In this document: piece by piece, positions 1-46,209 of the stretch
How the letters are laid out: each line of letters begins with the position of its first letter
How positions within the stretch are numbered: the first letter of the stretch is position 1
From: Amphiscolops sp. MND2022
Taxonomy: Eukaryota
Assembly (NCBI GenBank): GCA_964187785.1
Contig: OZ076409.1
Coordinates: 71,302,001 to 71,366,000 of the forward strand
Direction of reading: 5' to 3'
DNA length: 64,000 bases
Program-made: the position numbers and the translations under genes
Notes under the pieces: generated by a model
The model's input: only the letters and a program-made list of their open reading frames with translations
Told to the model about the DNA's origin: nothing
Database searches by the model: none

Positions 1-680
1 TCGACGGTCTACAGTAGTGAACATAGTCATGAAACCTTGTGGGGGGTAACGGTATATAGCACCGGAAGTCAAACCGTTGGAGACAGCTTAGGTTTTTTGG
101 TTTTAAAATGTCTTTCGGCGTAATTTTTTCGACTCTTGTGGACTATTTTTAAAAATTAAAGTTTTTCCATATAGTTTCAGAGACTCCGAAACCTCAACCA
201 ACATAACCGTTACCTTATGATAGCCTTTCAAGTTGGCCTGGTGTCAACTTGGAAGCGCTATCCTTCTGAAATCGTTAATCAAGAGTGTTTTTGGGTAGGT
301 ATATATTGCATTAGTACCAATTAGAGCTTCATCAACAGTGTATCAACGACAAAAACTATGCCGTCATGATTCCGTTATTAGAATCATAGTGAGCAAATTG
401 TTGAAAAAAATGGTTTTTTCCATACAAAATGTGTCCTAAATGCCAGGAAACCTATTTACCTAACAAATGGTATTAATTGGAATGTTTGTAACAGATTTAT
501 AAAAGTTCAAATTGAATATTACATTTCATTATGGAAGCTGAAACGTCATATTTTAGTTTAATTAACGTCAACGCCACACACTTTACATCAACGCCCACCG
601 TCTGTGGGCATGCCGAGGCATGCCCTTCGACGACGTATACCAAATACATACCCAAACGACGCCCGTACATTCCGGGCTAG
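1..680 (+). mobile_element. Partial non-autonomous cassette (type C-related), right part only
   Basis: Ends in the conserved junction (hairpin 606-625, CTAG 677-680); carries the GATAGC...GCTATC hairpin (~219-262) also seen in type C units (~10865-10907). Confidence 0.7.
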
Positions 681-684
681 GTGG
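586..684 (+). repeat. Conserved junction/terminal motif, copy 1 of 13 (hairpin cores start at 606, 2783, 4977, 7354, 9731, 11120, 13504, 15691, 18072, 20457, 43479, 44873, 46144)
   Basis: CCCACCGTC(C/T)GT-like lead-in + RGGCATGCCGAGGCATGCCY palindrome + TTCGACGACGTAT + 29-40 variable nt + CTAGGTGG, read directly at each position. Confidence 0.95.
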
Positions 685-2858
685 ATGTTATTTTATAATA
701 ATTAAAGTGTTTTTTCCGGAGTTTGTGGCTTTGGAAAAAACAGAAGTCGAGAAATTTGGCACTCCAGGCTGATCCTGTCTAGTCCAAAATATACTATCAA
801 AAATGACCCATTTTTCTCCGATCTCGAAACCCAACCGTAGGATTTGGCTGAAAATTTGCATGTGGCTCCAAGTCAATGAGTGATGAAAAAGTGTAGAAGT
901 GACTTTTCCTGGGAAAATTGTTTTTGTTGCACTTTTTGCGCAATTTTTGGCCGATTGTTGCGTTTTTTATGTCACTTTCGACTTTTCAGGCAAAAAACTC
1001 ATGGATGCTTTGATCCTAGCGCATCAAGTGTTACGACCAAAAAGTTACAACATGTTCTTTTACGTATGCTGAGAAAATTTGGTCGCAATCGTATTACCCC
1101 CCACTGAGATAGAGGGGAACTTCCGGTGGATTTTAGCACCCTGAAAACGAGGACCTCCTCAATTTCAGCAGGAAGCGGTAGTTTTAGCGTTCTCATACCC
1201 TGCTGACGTTTTGTTGGGCATATTGAGTTAGTCATGATATCATGTGTTCAGTTCACCCCCATCACCCCCTGGACCGGAAATGAACTTTTTGTGCACTATC
1301 ATACCGGAAGTCTCCAATTTCAACGTTAAGCAGTCCTTGTACGAGCAACTACCAGGACATCAAAATTGAAGTACCACCTAAAGTCAATGCAGTGACTACG
1401 TGTTGTCCAGTCATAGGTTCCGCAATGACCGGAAATGGGGTCAAATCCCCCTTTTTTGTTGCTTTTTAACAATTTGACTAGTGTTTGGTCCACATTCAAG
1501 TCACATAATTCAATTGAACCAGTGTGAGCATAAACTGTATGTTCACTGCGTAGACGTAACTGACACTGACAGGTACCGGAAGTAACCCCCCCATAACCGG
1601 AAGTTGTCATTTTTGACCGGAAATGGTCCAAAATGTAGCGTAAAATCAGTTTTTCACTGCTTTTTGAAGTCAATTTAATTCATTTTCAATATTGGCGAGC
1701 TTGTATTCAGGTTCGTTTTTGTTACCCGTGCACTTTGCAACAAATATACATCTGTAAAGTTTTCTCCATAATATCTTCGGATAGAGAAATAACGTGTTTT
1801 CGGGACTTTTTTCAAAAATATTACACTATATCTGTCATTTTTACCCAAAGTTTTTCAACAGTACAACCACAGTGGTTAGTCTCTGCCCAAATGTATGCCT
1901 AACAAAACTATTTGGCCCATTGACCTCAGTTTGAGCGTTCCAGCTTTGCGTGGTCATAAGCTAAGGGACTTGAAAAATTTTCAAACTTTTTCAAAAAAAC
2001 AATTTCTCACCTTCATGTCTCCCAAAGTAAAGAAACTTCCACACAACTAGGATTGAAAGTGGATGCATGTGACAAGCCCTATAATTAAAGAAAAAAATGC
2101 CACTAAGAACGTCTCTCTATCGTAACTTGATGTTAACGTATGATACTTTGAATGAGAGCTTGATAAGAGGTCGAGAAGTCAAAGTGTGTAAATGGAACGT
2201 ATGTCTCGTCGAAAACTCATCGGAATACGTTCAATGAACCCCAATTGTCCTCAATTGCAGATGCCTAGTGCAACACCGTCTTTCAGGGACATTTTACACA
2301 ATTCCATAAGTGTCAAAATTATTTTTAAATTCAGTTAGCAAGAAACACTTGAGTACATTCTCATCTGTCCCCAGCGGGTGAGATGAGAATGTTCCTGCTA
2401 AAAACCAGGTACTACGGCCCACTTTTGTTTTGTTGCGACGCATTCTCTGCTTTAGCACATATATATATTTATTTCTCCTGATTTTTTGTACACACTCTAA
2501 CTTGTTATTATAAACTTCTCGTCATTACTTTACATAAATTTACAACGTTATCGTCAACGCCACATACATTTAGACGCCCACCATTCCGTAGGTATGTCGA
2601 GGCATACCTTTGATTACATGTCAAAACGCAAACGCGATAAAAATTGCTGAAATTCAGAAACAGTGACAAACGATTTTGACTATTTGAAGTATGGTAGGTT
2701 TTTTTATGGAACTTACACATCACTGACATTTCACAACATTCCAGCTGACGCCCACATACCAACATCAACGCCCACCGTCCGTGGGCATGCCGAGGCATGC
2801 CCTTCGACGACGTATGCCAATTTATTTCATATCTACACCCAACCGCGGTAGCAGCTAG
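681..2858 (+). mobile_element. Non-autonomous Helitron/Helentron-like cassette 1 (type A start, type C-like middle, A/B-like end)
   Basis: Bounded by conserved junctions; start matches 2859 and 13575; ~870-1680 resembles ~9965-10770; no credible ORF. Confidence 0.75.
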
Positions 2859-5045
2859 GTGGAGGTTATTTTATAATAATTAAAGTGTTTTTTTCCGGAG
2901 TTTGTGGCTTTGGAAAAAACAAAAGGCGAGAAATTGGGCACTCCGGGCTGAACCGTATACACTCAAAATTCGCCCAATATTTATACGATCTCGAAACCCA
3001 GCCGTACGATTTGGCTGAAAATTTGCATGCGGCTAAAAAATCAGATTCTAAGAACTATTTCCTGCTGACATTTTTTTGAAATTTTTGTGTACGTTTCCCC
3101 CCCGCCCCCTAAAGGGGTCAATTTTCCCCAATTTTGCACTTATGAGCCAAATTCTCAAAACTGGTGGATCTGAGCGTATTCCTGGCGGGGACAACTTTTA
3201 ACGCGCGCTCCTCAGTAGACCTTTTTGACTTTTAACTTTGGTGGTACGTTCACCCCCCGAGGAGGAAATGGCGTTTTTGTGACTTCCGGTCGAGGCTTTT
3301 TTCACCCAAAAAATAGAATTAAGCCAATTTTGAGCAGGAAGGAGTGGATTTAAAGTGCCTGTACCCTGCTAAAAATTTGTTGGGCTTGTAGCGATATATC
3401 TCATACCAAGTCTGGTTTTCACCCCCAAACCCCCCTTGGGACCAAAATTCACCCAAACTTTTTTTACCTCTGTTTGTAGTTTTTTTTGCAAAATGTCGTC
3501 ATTTCCATGGGTAAGGAGTTGAATTAGGGGCTCCTAATAGGGTACCAATGTTCAAGTACACTTGCAGTGCAACTGAGTGACCCTTTTGGGGCCTCTCCTG
3601 TGTTCGACGAGGACCGGAAGTGGTGTAAACCCCCCTTTTTTGACGTTTGTTGACCTTGAGACTCGCGCTTAGATGACGTTTATATCGCGCAAATCCTACA
3701 AACCAGTATTAGGATGACATGCTAGCCTACTAGAGAGCACTAAGGGAAACTATACTATACCGGAAGTAACCCCCCGTGACCGGAAGTTGTCATTTTTGAC
3801 CGGAAATGGTCCAAAACATAGCGTAAAAGCAGTTTTCATTGCTTTTAAAGTCAACTTATTACTTTTTTCAGTCTGCGCGAGCTTGTCTTCAGATTCGTTT
3901 TTGTTGTCCGTGCACACTACAACAAATATACATCTGTAGAACTTTTGCTATAATATCGTCGGAGAGAGAAATAACGGGTTTTCGGAATTTTTTTCAAAAA
4001 TGTTTGTCTATATCTATCATTTTTACCCAACGTTATTCAACAGTAGAACCACAGGGGTTAGTATCTGCCAAAATATATGCCTAACAAAACCACTCGTCCC
4101 ATTGGTTGCAGTTTGAGCGTTCTAGTTTTGCCTGGTCACAAGTTGAGGGACTTCAAAAAGTTTCAAATTTTTTTGGAAAATTTTTTTTAAACGTCACGTC
4201 TCCCAAAGTTAAGAATTTTCCACACAACTAGGATTGCAAGAGAATGCACATGGTAAGACCTATAAATGGAGAGAAAAATTCCGTTCAGAACGTCTCTTTA
4301 TCGTTACGTGACGTTAAAAGATGTTGCTTTGAATGTGAATTTGATAATGCGTCGAGAAGTAAAAGAGTGTGAATGGATCCTATGTCTCGACAAATACTCA
4401 TCGCAATACATACGATGAACCCCAATTACCCTCACTTTCAGTTGGCTAGTACATCAGCGTCTTCCAAGGACCGTTTACCTATTTAAAAATTGTCAAATTC
4501 ATTATTAATATCAGTTAGCAAGAAATATTTGAGTACATTGTCATCTCTCCCCATCGGGTGAGATGAGAATGTTCTTGCTAAAAGTCAAGTACTACGGCCC
4601 ATTTTTGTTTTATTGCGACGTTTTCTGTGCCTTAGCACAAGGATACTTTTATGTCATCTCACTTTTGTTATACAATCTGACTTGTTGTTATAAAATTCTC
4701 GTCATTACTTTACCTAAACTTACTACCATGCATCTTTAACGTCAAAGCCAAATTCATTTAGACGCCCACCATTCCGTAGGTATGCCGAGGTATGCCTTTC
4801 GAAGAAGTATGGCAAAACACAAACGGGCAAATGAAAAGGGCTGAAATTCAGAAACAGTCACAAACAATTTTGACTATTTGACCGATGGTAGGTTTTTATA
4901 TGGAACTTACACATCACTGACATTTCAAAACATTCCAGCTGACGCCCACTTACAAACATCAACGCCCACGGTCCGTGGGCATGCCGAGGCATGCCCTTCG
5001 ACGACGTATGGCAAATACCTTTTACGACGTCCCAACTTTCCCTAG
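2859..5045 (+). mobile_element. Non-autonomous cassette 2 (type A)
   Basis: Junction-bounded; closely similar to 13575-15767. Confidence 0.75.
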
Positions 5046-7424
5046 GTGGTCGGGGTGTTTCCCAGCCGTTTTGGCCGCGCGGGGAGGGACCCGTTCAGCG
5101 GCCCAGGTAATTAAGATTTTGTCATTCAAAAAATGACCCATCCGGAAAGCGATTTCGAAACCCACCCGTAGGATCCCTCTGAATTTTTGCATGCACCTCC
5201 GTATAACAGATGTAAGATAAAGTCAGCAAGGGCGTTTTCAGTTCTAAACGGGGAATGTTGACCAAAAAGCGCAATTTATGTCCAAAAAAATGCAATTTTT
5301 CGACTTTTTTATTTTTGACGGCCAACAGCGCTTTTCCAGATGCCCGCCCAAGTCATAAACCGAAGAGAACTTTTGTTGGGCACTTCGTGAAGAATCTTTA
5401 GGGTGATTTTCGTTTCAATCGTATTTGCTGACGTTGACTTTTATGTGACGCAATTAGGTGACAAATTCGGTAAAAAAACGTGATTTTCGGACTCAAGAGC
5501 CCATAACTCATTACAGAGTCAATTTAGCAAGTACACTTATATTTACGTTTTTGTTGCCTATCTATAGGCAAACAATTAAGCAGAAACAAAATTTTCTGTG
5601 AAACATCGTCAAAAAAAGATATCACAGGTTTTAAAAACGCAAAAAATGTACTTTTTTTGCATTTCGTGAAAAAATCTAAAAAGGTGGCATCTACCGGCTG
5701 TTTCAGGTAGCGGGTACTTTATTGCAGTTAATAGCTGACCTTTAGTAGTCATTTACTTGGATGGTTTTTGATTTTGATAAATTGCATGAAAACTTTCATT
5801 TTTTGCCTCACCAATATTGACACCCACGACTACAGTCGATTTTTCGAATTCACGTATTCAACTGGATATAACTTTTTTCCAGAGCGTTTTACGGTCCTCA
5901 CACAGGTGTGCAAAAATGTTGCCCGTCCTAAACAGAAGGCATATGGTGAGTTTAATATGATTTGAGACGTTTTTGAAATGTCCAGAGATGCACAAATTTA
6001 CAGTTTTTTTGCCCCTAAAACACTATTTCACGAAACCCAACACTTTTTGCCAAAAAAGTCAAACTTCGTCCACACAACTTAGATTGCAAGTGGATGCATG
6101 CGGAGAGTACTTGAAATGGCAAGAAAAATGAGCTATAGAACGCTCATTTACGACAACCTGACGTGGACTTAAGTTATTTTGAAAAATCACAAAAAAGAAC
6201 AGCGGTTCCAAAACAATCAGTTTGTAGTAAATGACCAATAACTCCATACACAACCCTCCGCGCAAGATAGTGTACTAGTACGTTTTTATTACCTGTGAGC
6301 AGTGGAACAAATAAGCAAAAGTAAAACTTTATGTAGAAAATCGTCGGGGAAAGAAATAACGGGATTTTAACTCACATTTAAGTGACAAAATTCAAAAATC
6401 AGTCTTTCCATGGCTTTTTCCCTAATAATTTTCGACAATACACCCACAGGGGGTAAACTCTGACTGAACTTGTGCCTACTAAAACTACTTGATCCATTGG
6501 CCGCAAATTAAGCCTTCTAGTTTTCCCAGTCAAAAGTTATGGGACTTCGAAAATTTTCAAAATTTTCATTTTTCAACAAAATTTCAACTTCAGGCCTCCC
6601 AAAGGTAAGAAAAACCCACACAACTAGGATTGCAAGTGAATGCATGTAGAAAATACTCGAAAAGATGTGAAAAATGGGCTTTAGAACGTCTCTCTGTCGT
6701 AACCTGACGTTGACTTATGAAGTTTTGAATGTGAGATTGCTACAGGGTCGAGAAGTCAAAGCGTGTAAGTGGAACATATGTCTCGTTGAAAACTCAACGG
6801 AATACTTTCCATGAACCCCAAACACACTCAATTGCAGTTGCCTAGTGCACCAACGTCTTTCAAGGACCTTTTTTGATAAGTGTCGAAATCATTATTAACT
6901 TCAGTTAGCAAGAAACACTTGAGTACATTCTCATCTCTCCCCACAGGGGGAGATGAGAATGTACTTGCTAAAACGGCCTCCTTTGTTTCCATGCGAGATA
7001 TTCTGTCGCTTTGGCACATAGATGACATTTTGTTTTTCCTTACGTTTCGTTTATACTTTGACTTGTCTTTACAAATTTTCCGTCATTATTTACTTTACAT
7101 AAACTTTCTACCATGCACCATTAACGTCAACGCCACATACAATAAGACGACTATCTTTCCGTAGGCACGTCGAGGCATGCCCTTTGACGACGTATGCCAA
7201 AACACACGCCAACAAAAGTGCTGGAATTCAGAAAGAGTAACAAACATTTTTGACTACTTGACATGTATGTTTTTGTATGTAACTTACACATCACTGACAT
7301 TTCACAACAATCCAGCTGGCGCACTCATACCAACATCAACGCCCACCGTCCGTAGGCATGCCGAGGCATGCCTTTCGACGACGTATGCCTAATCCACTAT
7401 TCCGACGCCCCCTCCTTCCCCTAG
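5046..7424 (+). mobile_element. Non-autonomous cassette 3 (type B)
   Basis: Starts GTGGTCGGGGTG...CCGCGCGGGGAGGGACCCGTTCAGCGGCCC; junction-bounded, ~2.38 kb. Confidence 0.75.
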
Positions 7425-9802
7425 GTGGTCGGGGTGTGTTTCCCAGCCAATTTTGCCGCGCGGGGAGGGACCCGTTCAGCGGCCCAGGTCATTATTTTTT
7501 TACATTAAAAAAAACGATACCCCGGAAAGCGATTTCGAAACCCACCCGTAGGATCCCTCTGAATTTTTGCATACACCTCCGTATAACAGATGTAAGAAAA
7601 AGTCAGCAAGGGCGTTTTCAGTTCTAAACGGGGAATGTTGACCAAAAAGCGCAATTTATGTCCAAAAAAATGCAATTTTTCGACTTTTTTATTTTTGACG
7701 GCCCATAGCGTTTTCCCAGATGCCCGCCCAAGTCATAAACCGGAGTAAACTTTTGTTGGGCACTTCGTGAAGAATCTTTAGGGTGATTTTCGTTTCAATC
7801 CTATTTCCTGACGTTGACTTATGGTTGGGTGAAAAAACGCAACATTTGTCACAAAAAGTGCTTTTGGTACTCAAGGCCCCATAACTCGTGACATAATCAA
7901 TTGAGCAAGTTCGTGTATACCTACGATTTTGTTGCCTATCTCTAGGAGAACAAACAAGGGGATACAAAATTTTCTGTGGGAAATCGTCAAAAAAAGATAT
8001 CACAGGTTTTATACTCAATAAAACAGTGTTTTTCGGTTATCGTGGAAAAAATGTAAAATAGTGGCATTTTTCGGCTGTTTAAGGTAGCGGGTATTTTATT
8101 GCAGTTATTAACTCACCTCTAGTAGTCATTTACTTGGATGATTTTCACTTTTGATAAATTGCATGATAAACTTCATTTTTCGCGTCACCAATATTGACAC
8201 CCACGATTACAGTCAAATTTTTCGCGTTCACGTTTTTGAGTGGATATAACTTTTTTCCAGTGCGTTTTACGGTCTTCATCCAGGAGCACAAAATTGTTGG
8301 CCGTCTTAAGCAGAAAATATATGGTAAGTTTAGAGTCATTTGAAACGTTTTTGAAATGTCCAGAGATGCACAAATTTACAGTTTTTTTGCCCACAAAACA
8401 CTATTTTACGAAACCCAACACTTTTTGCCAAAAAAGTCAAACTTCGTCCACACAACATAGATTGCAAGTGGATGCATGCGGAGAGTACTTGAAATGATAA
8501 GAAAAATGAGCTATAGAACGCTCATTTACGACAACCTGACGTGGACTTAGGATAATTTGAAAAATTACGAAAATAAAGAACAACGGTTCCAAAACAATCA
8601 GTTTGTAGTAAATGGCCAATAACTCCATACACAACCCACCGCGCAAGCTAGTGTCCAAGTACGTTTTTGTTACCCGTGAACAGTGCAACAAATAAGTAAA
8701 GGTAAAACTTTATGAAGAATATCGTCAGTGGAAGAAATAACGTGATTTTATGTCACATTTGAGTGACAAATTTGAAAAATTAGTCTATTCCGGGCATTTT
8801 ACCTAAACTTTTTCGACAGTACACATACAGGGGATAAAATTGGCCAAATATCATGCCTAACAAAACTATTTGATCCATTGGCCGCAATTTGAGCGTTCCA
8901 CCTTTCCCCAGTCATAAATTATGGCACTTCGAAAATTTTCAAAATTTCCATTTTTCAACAAAATTTCAAATTCAGGCCCCCCAAAGGTAAGAAAGTTCCA
9001 CACAACTAGGATTGCAAGTGGTTGCATGTGGAAAGTACTCGAACTGACGAGAAAAATGGGCTTTAGAACGTCTCTCTATCGTAACCTGACGTTGACTTAT
9101 GATGTTTTGAATGTGAGATTGCTACGGGGTCGAGAAGTGTAAGTGGAACATATGTCTCGTCGAAAACTCATCGGAATACATCCAATGAACCCCAATCACC
9201 CTCAATTGCAGTTTCCTAGTGCAACAACGTCTGTCAAGGACCTTTTTTGATAAGAGTCGAAATTATTATTAAATTCAGTTAGCAAGAAACACCTGAGTAC
9301 ATTCTCATCTCTCCCCATCGGGGGAGATGAGAATGTACTTGCAAATTGGCCTCATTTGTTTTCATGCGAGGCATTCTGTGCTTTGGCACACATAGATAAC
9401 TTTGTTTTGTCTGTCTTTTTGCATATACTTTAAATTGTCATTAGAAATTTGCCGACTTTACTTTACGTAAAATTAACTTTCTACCATGCACCTTTAACGT
9501 CAAAGCCACATAAATTTAGACTCCTATCATCGAAAAACATACCGCGGCATCTTTTTCGATGACGTATGCCGAAACACAAATGTGAAAAAAAGTGATGAGA
9601 TTCAGAAACAGTGACAAACAATTTTTACTATTTGACATAAGGTAGGTTTTTATATGGACCTTACACATCACTGATATTTAATAACAATCCAGCTGACGAA
9701 CACATACCAACATCACCGCCCACCGTCCGTAGGCATGCCGAGGCATGCCTTTCGACGACGTATGCCCAATCCATTCCTCCGACGCCCCCACTCCGCCCCT
9801 AG
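7425..9802 (+). mobile_element. Non-autonomous cassette 4 (type B)
   Basis: Junction-bounded; 3' half nearly identical to cassette 8. Confidence 0.75.
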
Positions 9803-25806: not shown

Positions 25807-25984
25807 CAGTAAACCCTCGATTATCCGCCACTCGATTATCCGCCACCTTTGGTCAACCGCCACAAATCTACGGGGACATTTTGCTATAACACCCGTGTTT
25901 AAGCTCCCTTGATTAACCGCCACTCTCACTTATCCGCCATAATTCGCGGTGGACCGATGATGGCGGATAATCGAGGATTTACTG
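25807..25984. mobile_element. 178-bp MITE, Tc1/mariner/pogo type
   Basis: 24-bp TIRs CAGTAAA(C/T)CCTCGATTATCCGCCA with one mismatch, TA on both sides (25805-25806, 25985-25986), internal ATTATCCGCCA-like subrepeats. Confidence 0.85.
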
Positions 25985-26098
25985 TATAATATATAATATA
26001 TATATGATATAATAAAGATGATATAATATATATGACGTAATATATATGATATAATATATATGATATGAACTATATAATATAAAAAATAATAATATAGA
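25985..26098. repeat. TA/ATA-rich microsatellite-like tract
   Basis: TATAATATATATGATA-type repeats next to the MITE. Confidence 0.7.
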
Positions 26099-30901: not shown

Positions 30902-31250
30902 ACAAAATTTTTTTCATCCTGTCAATTCTGTTGCAGAATACTTTGATCTTGTGCAATACATAAAGTGAACATTTCAATGCATTAATTGATGTCAAAACAG
31001 TTAAAAGCTTTGATTTGACCGCCTTGGCCACTTTCTTCGTTGCAAAATATTCATATGTTTTCCATTGTCGATAGTTGATTTTGCATACGTGATGGTTTTA
31101 TATTTGTTCCGTTTTTCGGTGACATTGAAGATCTATGTAGACGTTAGAAAACATTTATAGTTCGTTTCTTTCGGTATTTGGCGTTAAATGGACAAGTTTT
31201 ATAAAATGATTTCAGCTTTGATTATTCTTTCAGCATAATGTATATGTAGG

Positions 31251-34256: not shown

Positions 34257-34276
34257 CGTCTGGTGATCCGCGTCTT

Positions 34277-37200
34277 TTGCAATTTTATTTCGATTGTTAC
34301 TTCAATTTCCAATCGCTTCGCAGAGATTCGAGATTGGTGTTGAACCGAGGACTGCAAGAATTTACAAAATCAGATAGCGAATGCAATAACCATGCAAAAT
34401 TTAGAATGAATGAGGTAGATAGTCGAAAAATTGTGAATGAACTTGCAGCTGCCATACGATTAGAGGAACCTACATTTTTTCTTACTTTCACACTGAACAT
34501 GTCTCGAATGTTTGGAGTTGCGCCGCTCTTTCAACTCATTGAAAAAAATTGCAAGGGTTTGAGCACTGAACAACAACACATACTCAAGGAAAGTTTCATG
34601 CCACTTTACATGAGACTGTGGGAAAGGGCTGTAGTTTTTTTCATAGAATATCTTGAAAAGTCCACTGAAAAACCTTTGGGTACAGTGACTAACATTTTTC
34701 CGAGGTTTGAATTCCAAACATCCAAGGGAAATGCTCCCCATTTACATGTAATAGTTTGGACCGCTGAATCTAAAAATGACCCAGTTATTTTGAATAAAGT
34801 TTTAGGTTCATTCAGACAACTTCTTCATCAATTAAATGTAGAACTGTTTGACTCATCGAACAAAAACGTAATGTCTCAAGAAGATGTTGATGGTTTATTA
34901 ACTTTGGCAAAGTCCCTTCTCAGTCATAATTGTGAAAAGGCCTCTTATAGATGTCACAAAAAGTGTGACAATTCGGGTAAGATGGTTTGTCGCTTCCATA
35001 TTTTCGAACCTTGTTCTGAAACGTTTTTCAAGTCTGTTGAAAGACCACATACACCTGAGGTTTGGTCAATTTTACACCATCTCGGACTGGCCAGGCCACA
35101 TGACAAGGTGGACGGTGCATTTCACATAGATGAGGTTTTGCAAGGAGGTAAGTTTAACTATGCAGCTGATTACGGCGAAACGTTCTCACCAGTGAATGGT
35201 AAACTGTTTTCATTGCTCCAGTGCAGTATGAATTGCTTACTATGTGACAGAGTAATGTCTGCCAGTTACTTAGCAAAGTACGCTGCAGGAATTGAAGAAC
35301 ATGCTACGGTAAGTATATCCGGTAAGTCTGACACAACTGTTTCGATTTGTGTGAAAAGTTTGAAAAACTTAAAGATTGCTGGTGCTGAGTTAGCTGCGAA
35401 GTCTGAAAAAACAAAGGTTTCAACCAAAAACTGCAGAGTTCTGTCTACAACTGAATGTGTTTGGTCCATGTTAGATCTAAGATATGTTTTTCCAACATAT
35501 GAATGTGTTCATGTTAACACTCTCCCTTTAGAAAACAGGGGCGGTTTTCTTAAACGAAAAAGTCATGCTCCGGTCGCAGACACAGCAGCTGAGGAGGACC
35601 AAGCGTTACATTTTGCAAAGATGCGAATAAGTTTGCAATCAGACAGTCGACGTTATTTCACAATTAATCAAATACGAACTGTTAAGGAGTTTGTGAAGTC
35701 CGGGTTAACAATCGACAAAGTTTCTCTTTTTGCTATGCGTCCGCCAGAGTTACTTTTTGTCAACAACATAGAGTTTTATTACAGACATTTCACTTTCGTA
35801 AAGTTGGACAAAAAATCAACTACCTCGATGTATTCCAATTCATTGCATGATAGCTGTTGGATAGATGCTATCGGGAATATAGTTAAATTGCGCTCTCAAA
35901 GTATTCCTTCTTTCCAACAGTTTCTCTTTCAGTCGAAACAGAGTCCCTCCTCCAGTTATTCTTTTTTCTCGACTTTTTATGAAAATTCATTCTCTACAAC
36001 TTTCAATATCAATCATTTAGTGGACTTTTCAGCTGAAAAGCAAAAACCAGCTGTTGTTGTTTTCCCTAATGTTATACCAAAGCACGTGCCGAACTTTCTG
36101 ATCAGCTTCCTCTTGCAATTTGGACGGTATGAAACGGAATTTGATCTGTTTCAAACTGAAAACATTGCAACTGCGTACGCAAGAGCCGGTTTGATCAAAG
36201 ATGCTGCTTCAGTCAATGATATAGATATCAATGAGTTGCTCAAACTCTTTATACTTCAAAGGGTAATGTTTATACCAGGGTCACATGTATCTCAAGATAG
36301 ACAAATTGTTGACGCCAAAAATGCTTTTTGTTTTTTAAACGAAAGTCAGGAACTGATTGAAACGCCAACCATTGTGTACAATGCATTACAGCAAGAATGT
36401 TCTGAAGAACTGAATCGAAGTGTTACGAGTAAAATCACAAATGTCACCAAACAAATTCATAGTCTCATAACTGATAGTCAAAAACCAACAATTGACTCAC
36501 TAATTGATTGTCAGGCTGATTTTCCTCTGAACTACAACCCGCTACACTCCAATGCCCTTCATTTCAATGCTGAGCAAACCTTCGTACTGCAAAATTTGAT
36601 TCACATCATTGATTCTTTTGTCAATTCAGCGGCTTCGTTCTTCAAATATCAGTTCGTTGTTGGAATGCCTGGCTCTGGGAAAACGTTTGTTACAATACAT
36701 TCTTTGTTTTATGCACTTTGTAAGGGTCTCAATGTTATGGTTACATCGTTAAGCAGCGAAAGAGCCATGCAGTTCTCAGGCATGCACATTCACGATTTGT
36801 TTGGCTTACCAGTTTCTCAAAGTCTCATTGTAGATGAAATTGTGGAAAAAGCTCTACAGAAACTTGATTTTGATTTTGTGAAACTAACTCTTTTGAAGCG
36901 CTTAGACGTCCTTCACTTTGAAGAAATTGGTATGGTTTCGTCTGAAGAGTTTGCTTCAATTGATCTCATCTTGCAGAAAGTGAGAGAAAACTATCAGCCA
37001 TTCGGTGGCGTATTGGTCTTTGCTACGGGTGACCCCAAACAGTTGCCTCCTCCTCAGGGTCGTTTGATTTGGACATCCCCAATAGTCATAACCATAGTTC
37101 AGATGTATGCGTTAAAACAATGTGTTCGGATGGTTGAAAACGTCGGTCGTCAATTTTTAGAAATGTTGTCTAGCTCTGATATAGACGAAGCTGAATGCAA

Positions 37201-38452
37201 AATCATTTTAGATACGTTCGCGCAACAGTGTAGTTTTGTATCACATGATAAATGTCCAATTGATGCAGTAAGAATTTTCGGAACCAGAGCAGCTGAGCGC
37301 AAAGCAGTCGCTCAACAAATCAGTGGACTGCGGTCTTCGGGTATTTTTGTATCAGAAATCATGAGTTCCGATGAGGTGAAAATAAATTCCAGTAGTAATT
37401 GGAAAGAAATATCTAGTGTTCACGTTACGGTGTTGTCAAAATTGTGTTTGGAGCCCCGGATACTTTATTGCTACGAAAATGCCCTTTTCAGATTCACAAT
37501 GAATATGCCTTCTTTGCATGTTTCACAAGGACAATTGTGCGCTTTTTTAAACTTTTTGGGTTCTTTCACTATAGAATTTATGGCTGCACCACCAGGTGTT
37601 CGATGTTTACCACCAAAAGATACTTTCGGCAACTTTTTGTTTGAGGAAAACGGTTGGTTTAGGGTCATTGTTCATAAACAGGCAGGATTCGTACATAGTT
37701 GTCGAGGTTCATCTGTTCGTCGTGTGCAGTTTCCTCTCAAAAACTTCCTTGCAATGACCATTCATAAAGCTATGGGAGAAACAATTGGCAAGATCGTCAC
37801 CAAAATTGATTGTGTTGAACGAGAATATAACTTATGGGAAAAGGAACAACTTTATGTTTTGGCTAGTCGGGTGCAACGTCTAAGTGATTTGACCTTCATT
37901 GGTGAAAAGCAAAACACACTTGATGCAATAAAGTGTCTTCTCAACAAAAAAAATCAGTGGGATAAATACACAGAACAACTTGTGAATACAGCTTCTAATC
38001 AAACACCAGCTGTTTTTGATATTGCCAAATTTTCTCCATTTAGACCACAAAAAATGGAAATACCAAACGAAGCAGTAGGATTCGTCTACCTTTTAGTAAG
38101 CATAAAAGATGTGACATCTTTTTATGTAGGTGAAACTAGTGAATTACGTAGACGGCTCCTGGAGCATAACTCAGGACAAAGTTCTTTTTTCACCTTTCAA
38201 CCGCATCTTCGCCCTTGGGGTTTGCTAGCTTTCGCTACGGGTTTCAGCGACATTGCTGAAGAAAACAAAACCCAACGACAAACTTTAGAAAAAAAAATCC
38301 AGGATGAGATCTTTAAAAAATTTCATGCTTTCAACAGATCCGGATCACCAAATGAAGTGCTCGACGTTTTCCTTGAATGCATTCAACAGGCTAAGTATGA
38401 AAACAACTGTCTACGAGCTGTCATTACTGGATCAATTTTACACTCATGTTAA
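34277..38452 (+). CDS. HUH Rep + Pif1-family SF1B helicase + C-terminal GIY-YIG-like nuclease (Helitron-like transposase, C-terminal half)
   Basis: Rep motifs PTFFLTFTLN, EFQTSKGNAPHLH (HUH), YLAKY; helicase GMPGSGKT, FEEIGM, FGGVLVFATGDPKQLPP, RVQFPL..AMTIHK, QLYVLASR; GIY-YIG-like GFVYLL..FYVGET..RRRLLEHN..RPW. Confidence 0.9.
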   Translation: MQFYFDCYFNFQSLRRDSRLVLNRGLQEFTKSDSECNNHAKFRMNEVDSRKIVNELAAAIRLEEPTFFLTFTLNMSRMFGVAPLFQLIEKNCKGLSTEQQHILKESFMPLYMRLWERAVVFFIEYLEKSTEKPLGTVTNIFPRFEFQTSKGNAPHLHVIVWTAESKNDPVILNKVLGSFRQLLHQLNVELFDSSNKNVMSQEDVDGLLTLAKSLLSHNCEKASYRCHKKCDNSGKMVCRFHIFEPCSETFFKSVERPHTPEVWSILHHLGLARPHDKVDGAFHIDEVLQGGKFNYAADYGETFSPVNGKLFSLLQCSMNCLLCDRVMSASYLAKYAAGIEEHATVSISGKSDTTVSICVKSLKNLKIAGAELAAKSEKTKVSTKNCRVLSTTECVWSMLDLRYVFPTYECVHVNTLPLENRGGFLKRKSHAPVADTAAEEDQALHFAKMRISLQSDSRRYFTINQIRTVKEFVKSGLTIDKVSLFAMRPPELLFVNNIEFYYRHFTFVKLDKKSTTSMYSNSLHDSCWIDAIGNIVKLRSQSIPSFQQFLFQSKQSPSSSYSFFSTFYENSFSTTFNINHLVDFSAEKQKPAVVVFPNVIPKHVPNFLISFLLQFGRYETEFDLFQTENIATAYARAGLIKDAASVNDIDINELLKLFILQRVMFIPGSHVSQDRQIVDAKNAFCFLNESQELIETPTIVYNALQQECSEELNRSVTSKITNVTKQIHSLITDSQKPTIDSLIDCQADFPLNYNPLHSNALHFNAEQTFVLQNLIHIIDSFVNSAASFFKYQFVVGMPGSGKTFVTIHSLFYALCKGLNVMVTSLSSERAMQFSGMHIHDLFGLPVSQSLIVDEIVEKALQKLDFDFVKLTLLKRLDVLHFEEIGMVSSEEFASIDLILQKVRENYQPFGGVLVFATGDPKQLPPPQGRLIWTSPIVITIVQMYALKQCVRMVENVGRQFLEMLSSSDIDEAECKIILDTFAQQCSFVSHDKCPIDAVRIFGTRAAERKAVAQQISGLRSSGIFVSEIMSSDEVKINSSSNWKEISSVHVTVLSKLCLEPRILYCYENALFRFTMNMPSLHVSQGQLCAFLNFLGSFTIEFMAAPPGVRCLPPKDTFGNFLFEENGWFRVIVHKQAGFVHSCRGSSVRRVQFPLKNFLAMTIHKAMGETIGKIVTKIDCVEREYNLWEKEQLYVLASRVQRLSDLTFIGEKQNTLDAIKCLLNKKNQWDKYTEQLVNTASNQTPAVFDIAKFSPFRPQKMEIPNEAVGFVYLLVSIKDVTSFYVGETSELRRRLLEHNSGQSSFFTFQPHLRPWGLLAFATGFSDIAEENKTQRQTLEKKIQDEIFKKFHAFNRSGSPNEVLDVFLECIQQAKYENNCLRAVITGSILHSC

Positions 38453-38587
38453 TTGTCTCATTCTATTCGAACACACTTTCGTTTTCGCTAAGAGCTTGAA
38501 AAATCTGTTTCGCAAGGGTGTTTTCAATCAAAAGCAGTTACTATTTTTTTTAAAAGAAGCTTGAAATGTTGCTCACCTCATAGTAAT

Positions 38588-38667
38588 GCTCTACTCATAC
38601 TATAGTGGGCATTGCGCTACTGAGGTCATTGGGGGTTTTGCTCTACTCATATTATAGTGGGCATTGC
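38588..38667 (+). repeat. Two ~28-bp direct repeats downstream of RepHel 1
   Basis: GCTCTACTCATA(C/T)TATAGTGGGCATTGC at ~38588 and ~38640. Confidence 0.8.
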
Positions 38668-38856
38668 TCTTCTCTGGTGGGTCGCACATTGGGTAGCATT
38701 TCAAAGTAAATAGTTTAAAACTACACTGCACTGTTTCAAAAATATGTATTTGATCATGGTCCTTTTAGTTGACAGTCGTTTTCTTGTCATAACTAACTGT
38801 TTCAGTCGCTTTCACTTTTTTATCTAATAATTTCATGATGTATAAGGATCCTTTAA

Positions 38857-38906
38857 CCCGCACGCAGGCTGTTAAGGCTGCGTGCGGGGTTCCTTTTGGA
38901 CGCTAG
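38857..38906 (+). other. GC-rich hairpin followed by CTAG (Helitron 3'-end-like signal)
   Basis: Stem CCCGCACGCAG/CTGCGTGCGGG (38857-38888), CTAG at 38903-38906. Confidence 0.55.
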
Positions 38907-39314
38907 CTTGCCTAACCTTCTGGAGCCGAGACAACTTCAATTGAGTATCAGAACAAAACATTTATCAGGCACAATGGAATAACCACTGTTTCATATTTTG
39001 TTCATTTGCTTATACTCTTTTGACGATTGTTCACTTTTATCGATAAACATTCAGTTTGTTTGTATTATACAACTGCATTTGGGTAGCTTGGCATCGAACT
39101 TTTATGTAATAAAGCATTTAAAAAGTTCATATTAGCAGAACTTTTTCCCAAACTTTCAGCGACGTGCCCCGGGATAAATTTAAAATAGCTTGCTTGAGAG
39201 TTGTTAACTTCGCTGTTTTGTGTTTGGAATTGTCCTAACAAAAATTTCGAAAGGTCATGCATCATTATCCTTACTTTTGTAAAACACAACAATTGGTATT
39301 CGTATATCATTTAA

Positions 39315-40550
39315 ATGGTTGAAAGTTCCAATAAAAATCCCGAAAAACGTCAGTTTCTTAGCAAGTTGTTTGCAAGTACTTTTGTAGTTTATAAAACACT
39401 TGTTGACAGGTCGAGGTTTCACCACATTTGTTTCCTTTTTTCAGTTGTTGTTTTGTCACCGACATTCTTCATTGCAAACATGAATTCAGGTTTTGCTAGC
39501 TCACTGACCCCTGCGGCAGCTCACGTGTTGTCCTTAGAATATGAAGAAATTTCCTTTGTCAACTTCATTGCTGGCGATGATACAGAGGACAGAAAATTGT
39601 ATTTGGTTTATATTCATGGGAAACGATCCACAGAACCGATAAAATATAAAATGCCAAGTGGTTCGAAATCTAACATTGCTTACAAGCAAAGACTCTTACC
39701 ATTAACATATGACCGGTTTTTCCTATTTGGTGACCCCGCTTCCAACAGAGTCTTGGCTCTTTTCTCATCAAATGAGAAAGAGAGCAGAATATTGACCCGG
39801 TACCACAATTTGATAAAACCCGGTCAGGTTGTCGTCATTATTGAGCCCAGAATAACAGGTACCATGGTTGACTCACAAAATGTTCTAATAACTACAAGCA
39901 ATCCAATTCTCGCAGTCCCAGAAACTGAATGCACATTAACCTTCAATGAGATGCCGCCCTATGACATCGAAAGTGAAACTGACATAAAGTTTTTCCACTT
40001 CATAACAAAAGACCTCAGATTGAAGTTCGTCACGCCGACAACGGATTTATGCTCAGGCTCTTTTTGCGACGGTCAAGCGGCTAAAGAGACAATGTGTGCT
40101 TGCATCGAAAAAACAGGTGTGAAAGAGTGGGGAATAAGAGCTCTTGTGGAATGCACGGAGTTATCTCTGGAGCGAACTTCTCACCAAAAATCCTCGTTTC
40201 TTTCCGTAGCTTTCGCGAAATTGGCAACGGTTGGTCATAGAAACCTCCGCCCGCAGGACGGAATGGCTTTTAATTGGATGACTTTCAAACGAAATATCCG
40301 GGAGTTCATCGAGGCAATCAATAACCCGAATGGGGTACTTCCTGACGCCCAAATGACGCAATTACAGCGAGGATTCAAGGTAATTGGTTGGTTCAAGCCT
40401 TCCAAAATCGATTCAGAGAGCTTTGTGGAAGTTCACGAATTCCACATAATATCGATTACAACGGTCAGTAAGTCGGATGAATTACCTCAGCAAATATTGG
40501 CTTTGCGTTTCCCAAGGCCGCCTGTATGTGATTCTGACGAAAATGAATAG
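39315..40550 (+). CDS. Uncharacterised 411-aa cargo protein (possible OB-fold-like region plus Cys cluster)
   Basis: Long uninterrupted ORF in AT-rich DNA; CSGSFCDG...CAC cluster; start may be M56 (~39480). Confidence 0.65.
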   Translation: MVESSNKNPEKRQFLSKLFASTFVVYKTLVDRSRFHHICFLFSVVVLSPTFFIANMNSGFASSLTPAAAHVLSLEYEEISFVNFIAGDDTEDRKLYLVYIHGKRSTEPIKYKMPSGSKSNIAYKQRLLPLTYDRFFLFGDPASNRVLALFSSNEKESRILTRYHNLIKPGQVVVIIEPRITGTMVDSQNVLITTSNPILAVPETECTLTFNEMPPYDIESETDIKFFHFITKDLRLKFVTPTTDLCSGSFCDGQAAKETMCACIEKTGVKEWGIRALVECTELSLERTSHQKSSFLSVAFAKLATVGHRNLRPQDGMAFNWMTFKRNIREFIEAINNPNGVLPDAQMTQLQRGFKVIGWFKPSKIDSESFVEVHEFHIISITTVSKSDELPQQILALRFPRPPVCDSDENE

Positions 40551-42139
40551 TGGCTCTTGGAGTCTACTAACTCAAGAGGTGCACGTTCAAGTGCAGGTAA
40601 CTGTAAATGCATATTTAGAAGTGATGCAAGAATTTACATTAGTGTTCGTTTCTATGTTGTTGCTAATTCCTATACTCTGACTTTGTTTGGTGATGTAAGT
40701 CACAGTTGAATATGAATGTTGTTTTAATTGTAGTTGTGTGGGAATGTTCTTAATTGAGCAATAGAGTCCTCTTGAACAGACATAATGAGTAAAGAGCGCA
40801 GTAAAATGTTTTGCAAAAAACTGTTACCCTTGGAAACTCTGCTTTGTTGTTGTTCTCCTGCATCCAATTTTTATGTGTTGCTGCTCAAAGATTTTATGGT
40901 GAAAACTATGTATGCGTTGTTCAATCTCAATATATATTCTGTTACAAGAGGTTTGTTGCCGATGATTCTGTTAAAATTATTAATGCAAACAATTGATGGC
41001 GGATTATCGAAAACGTCACATATGATGAAAACAAAAACTATATTAGCTTGTTTCAATTAAACTAGCACTTTCGAATATTGTTTTTGAAATATTGAGTCAG
41101 AAAGAGCTCGGGTCGACAAAAAATTTGGGTAGATTTTCAATGGTACTAACATGATTTCATTCAAGAATCGACTACCATTCAATAATTCTTGTCTCGAAAT
41201 GTCCATCTCAAAATTAAAACGTACTATCCTTAAGATGAGATCATTTTAAGATCCGAAAAAGTTCTGTAAATGTAATTTGGTGGAACCGTGTTTTGCTTCT
41301 TCGGTAGTACTGTGTATACTTTGATTTTTCCCATTTCACGATACGATTGACGATTGTTGGCGTCTGACAGGCCTCTTAAAACAATGCTAAAATGGTGTCA
41401 TGTTTGATATCAGATTTTTGGTACCAATGATTTCAGTTAGACAACTTAGAACAATCGCGTCAGTCAAATCGATGGCCTGTGGTAGTAATGCAAACAATGT
41501 GTATTCAGAAAACTCAATAATCAAGGGTTGACCATTTTTTCGGTTTGGCTAGATACGCTTGTAAGCACCTCGTTTCTCGCTGTGATAGGTAGGTAAGAAG
41601 TTAGTTAAAGACTGTGACAGTTTTCATATTTCTGATTCAAAAACATCATTGATGATTTGGCCACAGAAACATGTTGGTCTGACACGATTTTCTCCACCAC
41701 GTTGTCGGAATACGTCGTGATACGTTGATGGTAATTGGGATGTTAACCAGACAAAGTTTTCTGTCTGTCCATTGTAAGGGTTTTCATAAAACACTTTTTT
41801 GGTCTATAGTTGAACATGTAGTGTCTACTGAAAGGACTCATAGAGCTTACCGATGACAATTGCGACGATTTTGGAGTATATTCTCATCGAGCAATCAATT
41901 ACCATTCAAGAAATGTACTTTAAATGTAGTGAACATTTTAACTTTTTACGTGAAGATGAAGTTCTCTCCTCGTCTGAATTTCTTCTCTTCCAAGGGTATA
42001 TTTGGTATATTTAATAGCGAAATAAAAATTCCTACCTTAGATGGTTCTCCTCTTCGTAAATTGCAAAGTATTAGGTCTAAAACTTCTGATGTCGGACTAG
42101 TGAAGTTTGTATTCGTCATCCTTCCATTGGAAAGAGAAT

Positions 42140-42890
42140 TATTATTCTATTTTCTTCTATCCTATTTTCTTCTCTTCTGTTCTGGTTCGTTCTGTTCAAC
42201 TCTCTTTTATTTTTCTATTCTATTCCTTGCTATTCTATTCTATTCTATTCTATTCTATTCTATTTTATTCTTTTCAATTCTATTCTATTCTATTCTATTC
42301 TATTCTATTCTATTCTATTCTGTTCAATTCTATTCTATTCTATTCTATTCTATTCTATTCTATTCTATTCTATTCTATTCTGTTCAATTGTGTTTTTTAT
42401 TCTATTTCACACTAATAAACTGTTTTCTTCTCTTGCATTATCTTTATATCTATTTTTTTTCTATTGGGTTGCTTTTTATTATTTTTGATTCTCTTCGAGT
42501 CTATTCTCTTCTATTTTATAATACTCTATTCTATTCTGTTCTATTCTTTTCTATTCTATTCTCTCCTTTTCTATCATTTTGTATGATATATTTCTTTCTC
42601 ACCATTATCTCTTTTTTTCCATTTCTTTCTATTCTACACTAGCCAATTAGGTTCTCTTCTCTTTTTCTCTGCTGTTTTCTCTCTTTTCTATTGCATTCTT
42701 CTCTAGTTCTCCTAACTATTTTCTCTCTTTTTATTTTTTTCTCTTCCACTATTCTATGCTGTTCTACTCTCTTCTTTTATATTCTACACATTTCTATTCT
42801 GTTCGCTCATCTTTTTTTTGTTCTATTTTTCTCTTCCATCATATAGTTCTCTTTTCTGTTTTATTCTAATTTATTATTTACAATTCTCTT
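42140..42890 (+). repeat. (TATTC)n microsatellite with degenerate pyrimidine-rich flanks
   Basis: Near-perfect TATTC array at ~42231-42380. Confidence 0.95.
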
Positions 42891-42894
42891 TTTT

Positions 42895-42968
42895 GGGGCC
42901 CAGATAGCGTGTGTCCTCGTCGCGGCCCTGGGTACTGGTGAAACAACACCAGTAGCAAGAGCGCTATC
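42895..42968 (+). ncRNA. Candidate HDV-like self-cleaving ribozyme
   Basis: P1 GGGGCC/GGCCCU with G1-U wobble, P2 GAUAGCGU/GCGCUAUC, P3 GUG/CGC, L3 UCCUCGU, P1.1 CC/GG, P4 UACUGGUG/CACCAGUA, C at 42956 in J4/2. Confidence 0.7.
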
Positions 42969-43551
42969 AAACACGTTTTTCGCCAAGGAGCCATGTTTCC
43001 GGAAAGTAATAAAACTGGTAGTTCAATCTTCTGAAGGGTAAAACGAAATGTAATTGGACTCTGATAAAGGTTTTAGACGACGCTGATTCCGAAAACACAA
43101 ACTGAAAATTGTCAGACATCAGGAACAAACAGTGCTACAGATGGGCGCTCGCCCAGAAATGGCGCTCTACAGAAACAAAAACTAAGGGCTCATATTCGAT
43201 AATTATGTTTTCGGGCTTTTTTAATTGGTTTTCTCGGCTAGTTCACACCCTAGCAACGTGATGAATCCAAGCAAGTATTTGAGACCCGACAAAAGTGCCA
43301 AATCCTATGTTTCTCTCGACTCAAATTGGCCTCCGAGCCCATTTTCAACTGTTAAATACTGTAAAATGGTAATCAATTGAATCAATGTCATCCAGACAAA
43401 AAATATTTGAAGTTAAAGGACGCAAAAGAGCGCAGTCTTCTTCAACATCAAAAACTCTTGCCAACGCCAACCGTCTGTGGGCATGCCGAGGCATGCCCTT
43501 CGACGACGTATGCCCTTTTTATTATCTACGCCCAATCGCGGTAGCTGCTAG

Positions 43552-44942
43552 GTGGTCGGGTATTTTTTTTACTCGTAGATGGCGTTTGCGAGGCTTTGGG
43601 GAGGGCCCCGTGCCGAGCCTGTACCGAAATTTACCACATACCAGAAGTGTCCGATTTAATCGAGATCTCAAAAACTAACCGTTAGAATTCTCTGAATTTT
43701 TGCATGTGGCCCCTAATCAATGAGTAATGAAAAAGTGTAGGAGTGACGGTTGCTGAAAAACTTGTCTTTGTTGCACTTTTTGCGCAATTTTTGTCGCACT
43801 GTTGCGTTTTTTATGTCATTTTCGACTTTTCAAGCAAAAAACTCATAGATGCTTTGTTCCTAGCGTATCAAGTGTGGAGCACGAAAAGTTGCAGCATCTT
43901 CCATTACGTATGCTGAGAAAATTTGGTTGCCCTCGGATTACCCCCCACAGAGATAGAGGGGTGCATCCGGGTATTTTTGACCCCTAAATTTGGGAAATTG
44001 CTAATTTTCGTAATAAAGCCGTAGATTTAGCGCGTGCACACCCTGCTGAAGATTTGTTAGGCATTTTGAGATAGATCCGATGACATGCGTTGAGTTCACC
44101 CCCATCACCCCCTTGACCGGAAATGAACGTTTTTGTGCACTTTCAGACCGGAAGTCTCCATTTTCCCCGGTAAGGAGGCATTGTACGAGCAACTAGCAGG
44201 ATATCAAAAGTGAAGTATAACCTGGGGTCAACTTAATGACCACGTGTTGTCCAGTCATGGGTTTCGCTATGACCGGAAATGGGCTTAAAACCCCCTTTTG
44301 GTAGTATTTTTATCAATTTTTCTTGTGTTTGGTCCACATTCAAGTTGCGTAAGTCAGTTGAACCAGTGAGAGCATAAAATATATATTCACTGCGTAGTCG
44401 TAACTGACACTGCCAGATACCGGAAGTAACCCCCTGTGACCGGAAGAGGTCAATTTTGACCGGAAATGGTCCAAAAAGTAGCGTAAATTCAGTTTTCAAT
44501 GCTTTTTAAAGTCAAGTTATTAGTATTTTTCGATTTGAATGCTTGTTTCCACGCAAAAAGCTAACATCGTTGCATGTTTTGCTGAAGATCGGAAAAGTGA
44601 TCACCATTATCACCCCCGATAGCCTTTCAAGTTGACCTTTGGTCAATCTTGAAGGCTATCTGTTCTGAAAACGAAAAATAGTGGAATTTTGTTTCCTCCT
44701 TTCTCTTGATATTTTTCCTTCAAGTCAATTTGTCAAAAGAAATACATTTGTTCAACTGAGTGATCTGAATCCTGTCCAGAGGTGTCACCCGGACGAATAC
44801 CATTTCAAGCTGAAGTACACAAATCAGGGTACTATTAGACATCACACACTCCTACCAACTCCCACCGTCTGTGGGCATGCCGAGGCATGCCCTTCGACGA
44901 CGTATGCCAAATAGCGCTACATGGCGCAAACTTGTCCGCTAG
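43552..44942 (+). mobile_element. Non-autonomous cassette 11 (type C)
   Basis: Junction-bounded; nearly identical to 9803-11189. Confidence 0.75.
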
Positions 44943-46209
44943 GTGGTCGGGAATTTTTTTTCTGCTCAATTCTTTGCCAACTGGGGGAGGGGCCCCTGGT
45001 GGCTGTTACCCGAAATACATACCTACCCAAATCGTCCGCTCCGGATACGATCTCAAAACTGAGCCACACAATTTTCCTGAAACTTTGCATGTGGGCCTAA
45101 AATGAGAATGTAAGAACAATGATATAGGCGTTATTCCTGAATTTTTTCAAAAAGTTGGTCAAAAACGCAAAAAATGGGTCAAAATTGACCTCTTTTTCAA
45201 CTTTTTTATTTTTGAGAGCCCATATCTCGGAACGAGGTGGCCGTAGCGGGCCGCATAAGGACTCCGTTTTTGCTGGGCACTTGATGAGGAGTGCGTGGAC
45301 AAATTTTCGTCCAAATCGAAGTAAAATTGACTGAGTAATGAGTGATTTTTTGGCGACCTTTTTTGCGAACCCTATTGTATCTCTGCCATTTTCCGCCAAA
45401 ATTTTCAAAAGTGGTTCTACAGGAGGCAACCCCTGCCCAATTTTCTGCAAAACAAAACCATTTGGCCCTAAATACGAGGTTTCAGCGTTCTAGCAATCCC
45501 CGGTGAAAAGTTATAGGACTTAGAAATTTGTCAGTGAAACGCAAAATTTGTAAATTCAACTTCCGGTGCCCAAAAGTCACAAAACTTTCACACAACTAGT
45601 ATTGCAAGTGAATGCATGTAGAAAGTACTGAAATAGACGAGAAAAATGAGCTATAGAACGACTCTCTACCTTAACCTGACGTTGACTTATGATGTTTTGA
45701 ATGTGAGCATCCTATCTGATTTTAATGTCAAAAATGAGATTTTGTAAGTCATGTCTCATCAAAAACTCATCGGAATACGTTCAATCATCCCCATAGCTGT
45801 TCAATTGCCGTGGCTTAGTACAGCAACGCCATTGAATGTCTTTGGACCCATTTTGAAAATTATCGATACCGTCTTATTCGTCCGATATCACGAAACAGTT
45901 GAGTACATTCCATCTCCCTCTTTGGGGGGAGATGAGAATGTACTCGCTAAAGAGCTGGTACAATGGCCCATATTTGTTTTTAACTGACGCTTCTCATGAT
46001 ATTTCACACGTACACCTCTATTTGGTAACACATTTTCCTTTGCACCATGTTTATATAAGCTAAACCACTTCTTTACCTTACTACTTCTACTCAAACATCA
46101 CCAACGTAAACGCCACATACTCGCATCAACGCCCACCGTCCGTAGGCATGCCGAGGCATGCCTTTCGACGACGTATACCTAGTGTACGCGTTAGCGCGGT
46201 AGCCGCTAG
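44943..46209 (+). mobile_element. Non-autonomous cassette 12 (type D, ~1.27 kb)
   Basis: Junction-bounded; shares the CACAACTAG.ATTGCAAGTG block and internal hairpin with types A/B. Confidence 0.75.

Follow-up and report, generated by a model that had tools for sequence, protein, structure and literature searches.

The question raised by this locus is what a short stretch of DNA does when it differs at every joint of an array whose flanking sequences stay constant. The locus is a 64-kb stretch of the genome of Amphiscolops sp. MND2022 (contig OZ076409.1; C1:71.30-71.37 Mb of a 1.07-Gb genome), hereafter the window, in which 14 units of several families lie head to tail and the joints between them are marked by 13 variable segments. 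In the initial annotation these segments were read as a guide or identity element under diversification, or as scars of repeated cutting and repair. The units have been found to be elements that run from GTG to CTAG and stand behind CTNG without a target-site duplication. Together with Rep-helicase elements whose ends match theirs they make up mixed head-to-tail arrays; their segments are inherited, and the alleles are mosaic. The segment is the inherited final 30–40 bases of a Helitron-like element, with a conserved hairpin on one side and the closing CTAG on the other, and it is probably a terminator linker under loose constraint, which recombination reshuffles beside the predicted nick site.

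Junctions and element ends

The sequence TTCGACGACG is present in exactly 13 copies in the window, all on the + strand, and each is followed by 29–40 nucleotides (nt) and then by CTAGGTGG, which has only one other copy there (− strand, 28047). A search of the window thereby recovered all 13 segments where the initial annotation had placed them, each different from the others. At the 3′ end of an element the order is conserved hairpin, TTCGACGAC, segment and CTAG, after which the next element opens with GTG. The flanks had been called invariant, which holds within the window but not genome-wide: among 407 junctions (the sample used for allele counts, about a tenth of the copies in the genome) the terminal tetramer is CTAG in 394, CTGG in 10, CTTG in 2 and CTCG in 1, the positions of GTAT are conserved in 399, 387, 379 and 379, and many families start with GTGC rather than GTGG. 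The outer pair of the constant hairpin (G-C in 335 of these junctions, A-T in 69, G-T in 3) is, on these counts, compensated. The segment itself ranges from 21 to 48 nt in length. Closely related non-autonomous units (cassettes) behave largely as had been described: those at 11190-13574 and 18143-20528 (97% alike) differ within the segment in the final 5-6 nt only, and the segments of the two 1.39-kb copies (95% alike) share slightly more than was claimed, namely the first 12 nt, then AC and GGCGC, and both retain a GCGCY..GGCGC stem.

The same architecture was also met with outside this genome, in a metagenome contig (L223) where the identical hairpin is followed by a segment of 35 nt, CGAG and the GTG start of a unit; the hairpin pattern gave 0 matches in viral and prokaryote collections. 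Further array families have the 5′ motif but no hairpin, their last four bases being CTGG, CTTG or CTAG (L082-L110, L122, L154, L279-L282), and in some of these CAC or CCAC could pair with the GTG start. At the 5′ end of the element, 30-45 variable nt separate GTG from a GGGKAGGGNCC motif in most families (window 681-730 and every unit start); this stretch is family-specific and has few singletons. At window positions 4774, 7159, 9531, 15490 and 17874 the live terminal hairpin is preceded, at a distance of about 200 bp, by a decayed second copy without CTAG, and such hairpins are likely to be former ends.

Inheritance, variability and shuffling of the segment

Where the rest of two cassettes is less than 1% apart, their segments differ by 5.6% compared with 0.8% for 35-nt body windows, and in pairs 1-2% apart by 7.5% compared with 1.9% (the pairs are not independent in either case). 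Segment divergence in near-identical cassettes is therefore 4-7 times that of the body and exceeds the value at any position of the body window (maximum 0.037), which bears out the claim that the segment varies beyond its units. The segment is uncoupled from the body: when each window was left out in turn, 9 of 29 cassette pairs less than 1% apart had at least three differences in the segment, as against 24 of 1,442 body windows. Singletons are not similarly enriched (7.8 per 1,000 in the segment, 6.2 in the bodies and 2.3 in the hairpin), and common variants reach 2-3 times the density found in the bodies in three of five families but not in the other two; the segment is the most diverse of all windows in two of the five. 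Over longer times, divergent patches similar to the segment occur in the bodies as well.

The segment belongs to the upstream unit and is inherited with it. A test for association with the upstream or the downstream unit had been suggested, and it is the upstream family that is tracked, with no link to neighbours. The 407 junctions reduce to 210 alleles, 260 of the 407 having an identical twin; thus the segments of the window are unique within it but not genome-wide, four of the 13 recurring in the sample, two of them on another chromosome. In one class of 330 copies, a single tail is common to 41 of the first 100 (by hand count), and recent autonomous copies have identical segments in four of seven and four of five cases. 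Segments are linked to the 5′ allele of their own element (p<=0.003 in five of six tests, 0.023 in the sixth), and segment distance correlates positively with body distance. Variation that simply followed unit phylogeny had been named beforehand as evidence against a special segment; the upstream family is indeed followed, but within families the segment follows unit phylogeny more loosely than body windows do in four of five.

The alleles are mosaics. At distances of 60-250 nt, four-gamete conflicts of the segment with the body have a frequency of 0.49-0.83, compared with 0.19-0.34 between parts of the body, in all five families, so that conflicts with the body are about twice background. In one family 26 left and 18 right halves give 37 combinations in 54 copies, the main class of the window comprises 66 copies assembled from left and right halves about a 10-nt core, and segment halves cross family boundaries. 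Cross-family import was considered as the sole cause and rejected, the sharing of 12-mers across families being mixed.

Some constraint is nevertheless apparent within this variation. ACRC lies 13-24 nt ahead of the cut in 128 of 208 alleles, compared with 30 when shuffled, and the first 7 nt of the segment are semi-fixed. Stems of at least 7 bp are present in 21 of 285 alleles, where 3.1 are expected, and end 6-8 nt ahead of the terminal tetramer (about four of the alleles were shortened by the parser); in some lineages a 7-bp stem is retained in several different sequences through compensating changes.

Transposases

Two of the units are of autonomous type, here termed elements 1 and 2, and the involvement of a HUH-type element that had been suspected was confirmed by their Rep frames, which carry HUH and two tyrosines (Y2). 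The two overlapping frames of element 1 both match a single relative of 2,376 amino acids (P0001) and give PIF1 and GIY-YIG hits, and the Rep frame of element 2, 31% identical to P0001, gives a PIF1 hit and no GIY-YIG hit. H171, H173, Y347 and Y351 are invariant in 35 sequences. A model of the Rep region (predicted local distance difference test, pLDDT, 81) has as its sole significant fold match Helraiser (7LCC; E 6e-8, 13% identity), and the fusion of a Y2 HUH Rep to a PIF1 helicase is that of Helitron-like elements in the broad sense. Relatives are widespread, with 597 representatives at E<=1e-10 and one cluster named from hagfish. Of 20 relatives, nine have GIY-YIG and none gave an endonuclease hit, and DUF6570, a marker of HLE2 (PMC11417382), had no hit in the window proteins or in these 20 by a Pfam search in which the presence of the model in the Pfam copy is unconfirmed. 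A relative of the Rep of element 1 opens with the same 5′ end as element 1; one relative of that element (L283) has a segment and CTAG at its end and no hairpin.

Target site and arrays

Both lone copies and array ends have CTAG as their final four bases. Of the 36 hits in which the end precedes a base other than G, 30 loci were examined and two were internal matches; T is the second base after CTAG in 27 of the 28 remaining loci (hand count). At the other end, CTNG closes the host DNA ahead of the GTG start in 14 of 15 cases, found without requiring it; one of the scans behind this count covered 20 stretches, in 11 of which no start was located and one of which was array-internal. The target takes the form CTNG|DT. 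In one case a filled copy within a repeat could be compared with 11 empty paralogues, 10 of which read CTTG then GTCC; because all 11 run straight through, insertion in this single case was precise and without the duplication that is also lacking in Helitron-like elements broadly defined. One lone copy ending in CTTG resembles its target, and the idea of a target hybrid was rejected when the same ending was found within an array (L170).

Exact copies of hairpin and foot number 4,298 in the genome (reversed control, 0). Only 36 ends precede a base other than G, and five precede G and then a base other than T (the patterns differ slightly and the ratio is approximate), so the great majority of copies lie in arrays. 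All 20 ten-kb samples from C1:70.59-76.0 Mb were array DNA in a single strand orientation, and one array of about 6 Mb holds at least 28 long Rep-PIF1 frames. A search with Rep (167 amino acids) returned 152 matches; among the matches listed, 28 are in frames of >2,000 amino acids within C1:70.5-76.5 Mb (hand count), all on the + strand and 31-99% identical. Junctions flank 20 of 20 Rep loci upstream and downstream (in a few, the nearest may be a neighbour's), and these loci end in hairpin and segment in 15 cases and in another ending in five. The order is mixed, 119 of 168 neighbours being of different families; the 49 same-family neighbours are more than expected by chance (12 genome-wide, 41 within stretches). 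Concatemer formation or tandem duplication was rejected as the main source of the arrays, given this mixing and the finding that adjacent same-family copies are no closer than others (25 of 49; median 9.0% vs 10.2%). In all, multi-megabase arrays of single strand orientation bring together dozens of transposase frames that are unbroken with passenger families numbering some 30 or more.

Other large arrays were seen at C2:102-103.9 Mb, C3:2.4-3.9 Mb, C1:3.5-3.6 Mb and C1:37.9-38.2 Mb. Units that open at internal CTTG sites of another cassette were also observed (L165, L168), and junctions are therefore not the sole sites used.

A reshuffled terminator linker as the probable explanation

By analogy with Helraiser (PMC5876387), Rep would nick after CTNG and the top strand would be rolled out until it halts at the next CTAG, where the circle would close with the joint CTAG|GT. 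Array junctions fit the target rule because such a circle joint would read CTAG|GT; the joint would equal an array junction, junctions would be preferred targets, and arrays could expand by self-insertion. Self-insertion is inferred because the junctions fit the target rule, the order is mixed and adjacent same-family copies are no closer. The hairpin, common to most families, may serve as an anchor, close above the nick, for template switching or the exchange of strands, a step modelled on the origin of rolling-circle viruses, which is a recombination hot spot (PMC3187698). Old variants of the linker halves would be mixed in this way and afterwards copied faithfully.

Several findings weigh against the segment being a linker of this kind. 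In one large family it is no more variable than the body, most alleles are without a strong stem, the segment has the highest 12-mer sharing across families in only four of nine, and one family has zero four-gamete conflict inside the segment. Swapping or linkage with neighbours was found in none of 12 distance tests and in one of 18 neighbour tests (p 0.048), so that present neighbours bear no swap signature that would point to a place of exchange. Four-gamete conflicts can arise from repeated mutation or indel misalignment, and an excess of common variants without an excess of singletons also fits diversifying selection.

Alternative explanations

The alternative that survives best, though it is doubtful, is that the segment acts as an identity (address) element for recognition by its cognate Rep. 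A single array and a single hairpin are common to many diverged Rep lineages, and selection would keep the segment variants diverse so that each is terminated or mobilised by its own Rep, in the manner of geminivirus iterons. Segment classes largely follow families, segments are similar between one autonomous lineage and the cassette family belonging to it, and the density of common variants, the top diversity in two families and the lack of extra singletons would all be accounted for. Autonomous copies at 96% and 99% Rep identity nevertheless bear different segment classes, as do element 1 and its own 2.37-kb derivatives, several unrelated classes occur within one family, and Rep lineages are matched better by 5′ ends than by segments (by eye).

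It is improbable that the segment is a spacer free of constraint, drifting along with the phylogeny of the units and seeming variable only beside conserved flanks. Divergent body patches over longer times, the positive correlation of segment and body distances and a singleton level like that of the body would be expected of such a spacer, but the excess divergence of near-identical pairs over every body window, a segment-body linkage weaker than in controls, the retained motifs and the compensated stems of some lineages would not.

A DNA or RNA guide whose base pairing chooses the target, on the model of IS200/IS605, or a captured spacer, is very unlikely. Across 14 lone copies the last 8 nt are slightly nearer the target flank than expected from permuted pairs (p 0.045-0.048 in two of eight tests), but no test was significant on 20 sites, long words shared with or complementary to the target flanks are not in excess, and CTNG is constant regardless of the segment; no pairing by which the segment would set the target, of the IS200/IS605 kind, was found. 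Pairing of the segment with the start of its own element is possible in some families, a few G-rich ones, but is not general (mean rank 0.42) and was rejected; pairing with the downstream start is at chance, and no pairing with or likeness to neighbours was found. Captured spacers were not found either: in 2.04 Mb of DNA screened outside junctions, mostly array, the segments gave no credible 14-mer match, the only hits being a 14-mer at chance level and a junction whose hairpin is damaged, and no Rfam family was found.

Scars of repeated cutting by Rep or GIY-YIG and error-prone repair, which the length range, variation adjoining the nick and GIY-YIG on many Reps might suggest, can be all but dismissed, as alleles recur unchanged on several chromosomes, singleton density is near that of the body, CTAG and the next start are intact and the insertion with a known empty site is precise.

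Layout of the window

The features of the window are collected in Table 1. In addition, a long internal palindrome at 2350-2390 and eight similar sites is conserved across cassette families and is also present in contig L223. ACCGGAART, a motif which we take to be ETS-like, has 18 copies in the cassettes of window 1-22400 and 0 in 22400-43500. Element 1 contains two passenger frames, one (30329-30901) with a weak GDSL/SGNH-like match (E 4e-4) and one (39315-40550) of 411 amino acids with no family and a single-sequence model of pLDDT 31.

Table 1. Elements, junction parts and transposase frames in the 64-kb window
Feature	Position	Strand	Remark
Conserved subterminal hairpin (example)	606..625	+	one ahead of each of 13 segments
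TTCGACGACGTAT hairpin foot (example)	626..638	+	
Variable 3′-terminal segment (example)	639..676	+	
Remaining 12 variable segments	2816-2854, 5010-5041, 7387-7420, 9764-9798, 11153-11185, 13537-13570, 15724-15763, 18105-18138, 20490-20524, 43512-43547, 44906-44938, 46177-46205	+	
CTAG, terminal four bases of element and predicted nick site (example)	677..680	+	in lone copies, CTAG then host DNA
Nine non-autonomous elements head to tail	681..20528	+	681-2858, 2859-5045, 5046-7424, 7425-9802, 9803-11189, 11190-13574, 13575-15767, 15768-18142, 18143-20528
Autonomous-type element 1, 23.0 kb	20529..43551	+	initial 1.8 kb matches 2.37-kb cassette family
Element 1 transposase Rep(HUH,Y2)-PIF1-GIY-YIG	31239..38452	+	two overlapping frames: 31239-34256, 34229-38452
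Two non-autonomous elements	43552-44942, 44943-46209	+	
Autonomous-type element 2, 21.3 kb	46210..64000	+	extends 3,477 bases past window; initial 1 kb matches 1.27-kb cassette
Element 2 Rep(HUH,Y2)-PIF1 frame, unbroken, 2,367 amino acids	55707..62810	+	

Relation to known systems

The elements share with Helitron1/HLE1 (Helraiser) the Y2 Rep fused to PIF1, the 3′ CTAG, the lack of a target duplication and the Rep fold. They differ in beginning with GTG and not TC, in inserting at CTNG|DT and not at the A|T of HLE1 (PMC11417382), 14 of 15 host 5′ flanks ending in CTNG, and in sequence (13% identity to Helraiser); the main hairpin is about 45-60 nt ahead of the end, a C-terminal GIY-YIG is in the same frame, and the arrays mix many families. 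Of the HLE1 ending, CTRR behind a short hairpin, the tetramer CTAG is present in 394 of 407 junctions and a stem 6-8 nt ahead of it in some alleles, the constant hairpin being placed further up. With Helitron2/Helentron (HLE2) they share a RepHel transposase, hairpins near both ends and many non-autonomous partners. They are unlike it in that the same 15 flanks do not fit the T|T target of HLE2 (PMC11417382), the end is CTAG, DUF6570 and endonuclease hits are lacking in 20 of 20 relatives, and no clear 12-16 nt terminal inverted repeat was seen in an informal look.

Bacterial IS91 has a CTTG target, a far end of CTCG and a tetranucleotide kept beside the start, without duplication (10.1101/2025.01.24.634351), and the present elements likewise have a tetranucleotide target beside the start, a similar one at the far end and no duplication. 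In target and ends they thus resemble IS91 rather than known Helitrons, which use AT or TT. Unlike IS91, whose Rep is short, prokaryotic and helicase-less, these are eukaryotic 20-kb elements with a RepHel protein of 2,300-2,400 amino acids, and megabase self-arrays are undescribed in the accessible text on IS91.

A third Helitron clade, described from Paramecium, is telomere-targeting, inserts in C4A2 repeats, ends in CCAA and has 9-10 kb frames (PMC13085455). Compared by description, it is like the present elements in lying outside HLE1 and HLE2, in being site-specific and in one orientation, and in having alternative right ends with compensated stems, and unlike them in its telomeric insertion and CCAA end. 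Replitrons (PMC10288648) are also HUH transposons, one family of which has variable right ends, but have a Y1 Rep without helicase and fuzzy ends from flanking DNA, which is not so here. In gemini- and nanoviruses an origin hairpin is common to the master Rep component and its dependents and is homogenised by recombination; these elements are chromosomal transposons with no capsid, and the likeness is an analogy only.

Head-to-tail Helitron arrays were already known (PMC5876387), as were single-family ones (PMC11934779). No paper on a GTG...CTAG Helitron clade, a CTNG target or mixed self-targeted arrays was found in a search that lay outside most subscription papers. HELIANO left unclassified elements in 19 genomes, which may include the present clade.

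Significance

The novelty of these findings lies more in the system of self-stacking arrays than in the segment. A bolder view, which is speculative and rather unlikely as a whole, would see here a third Helitron clade of wide distribution (Rep-PIF1-GIY-YIG, CTNG target) that builds integron-like megabase arrays by insertion at its own junctions, the segment being a recombining address that is read by dozens of competing Rep lineages and kept diverse through frequency-dependent selection. Structure-based annotators seeking TC...CTRR or terminal inverted repeats would miss the elements described here. Precise insertion of a 20-kb cargo by a Rep at one defined junction would be of interest as a tool, and with hundreds of natural junction variants and cognate unbroken Reps the termination signal and target choice of Helitrons become testable.

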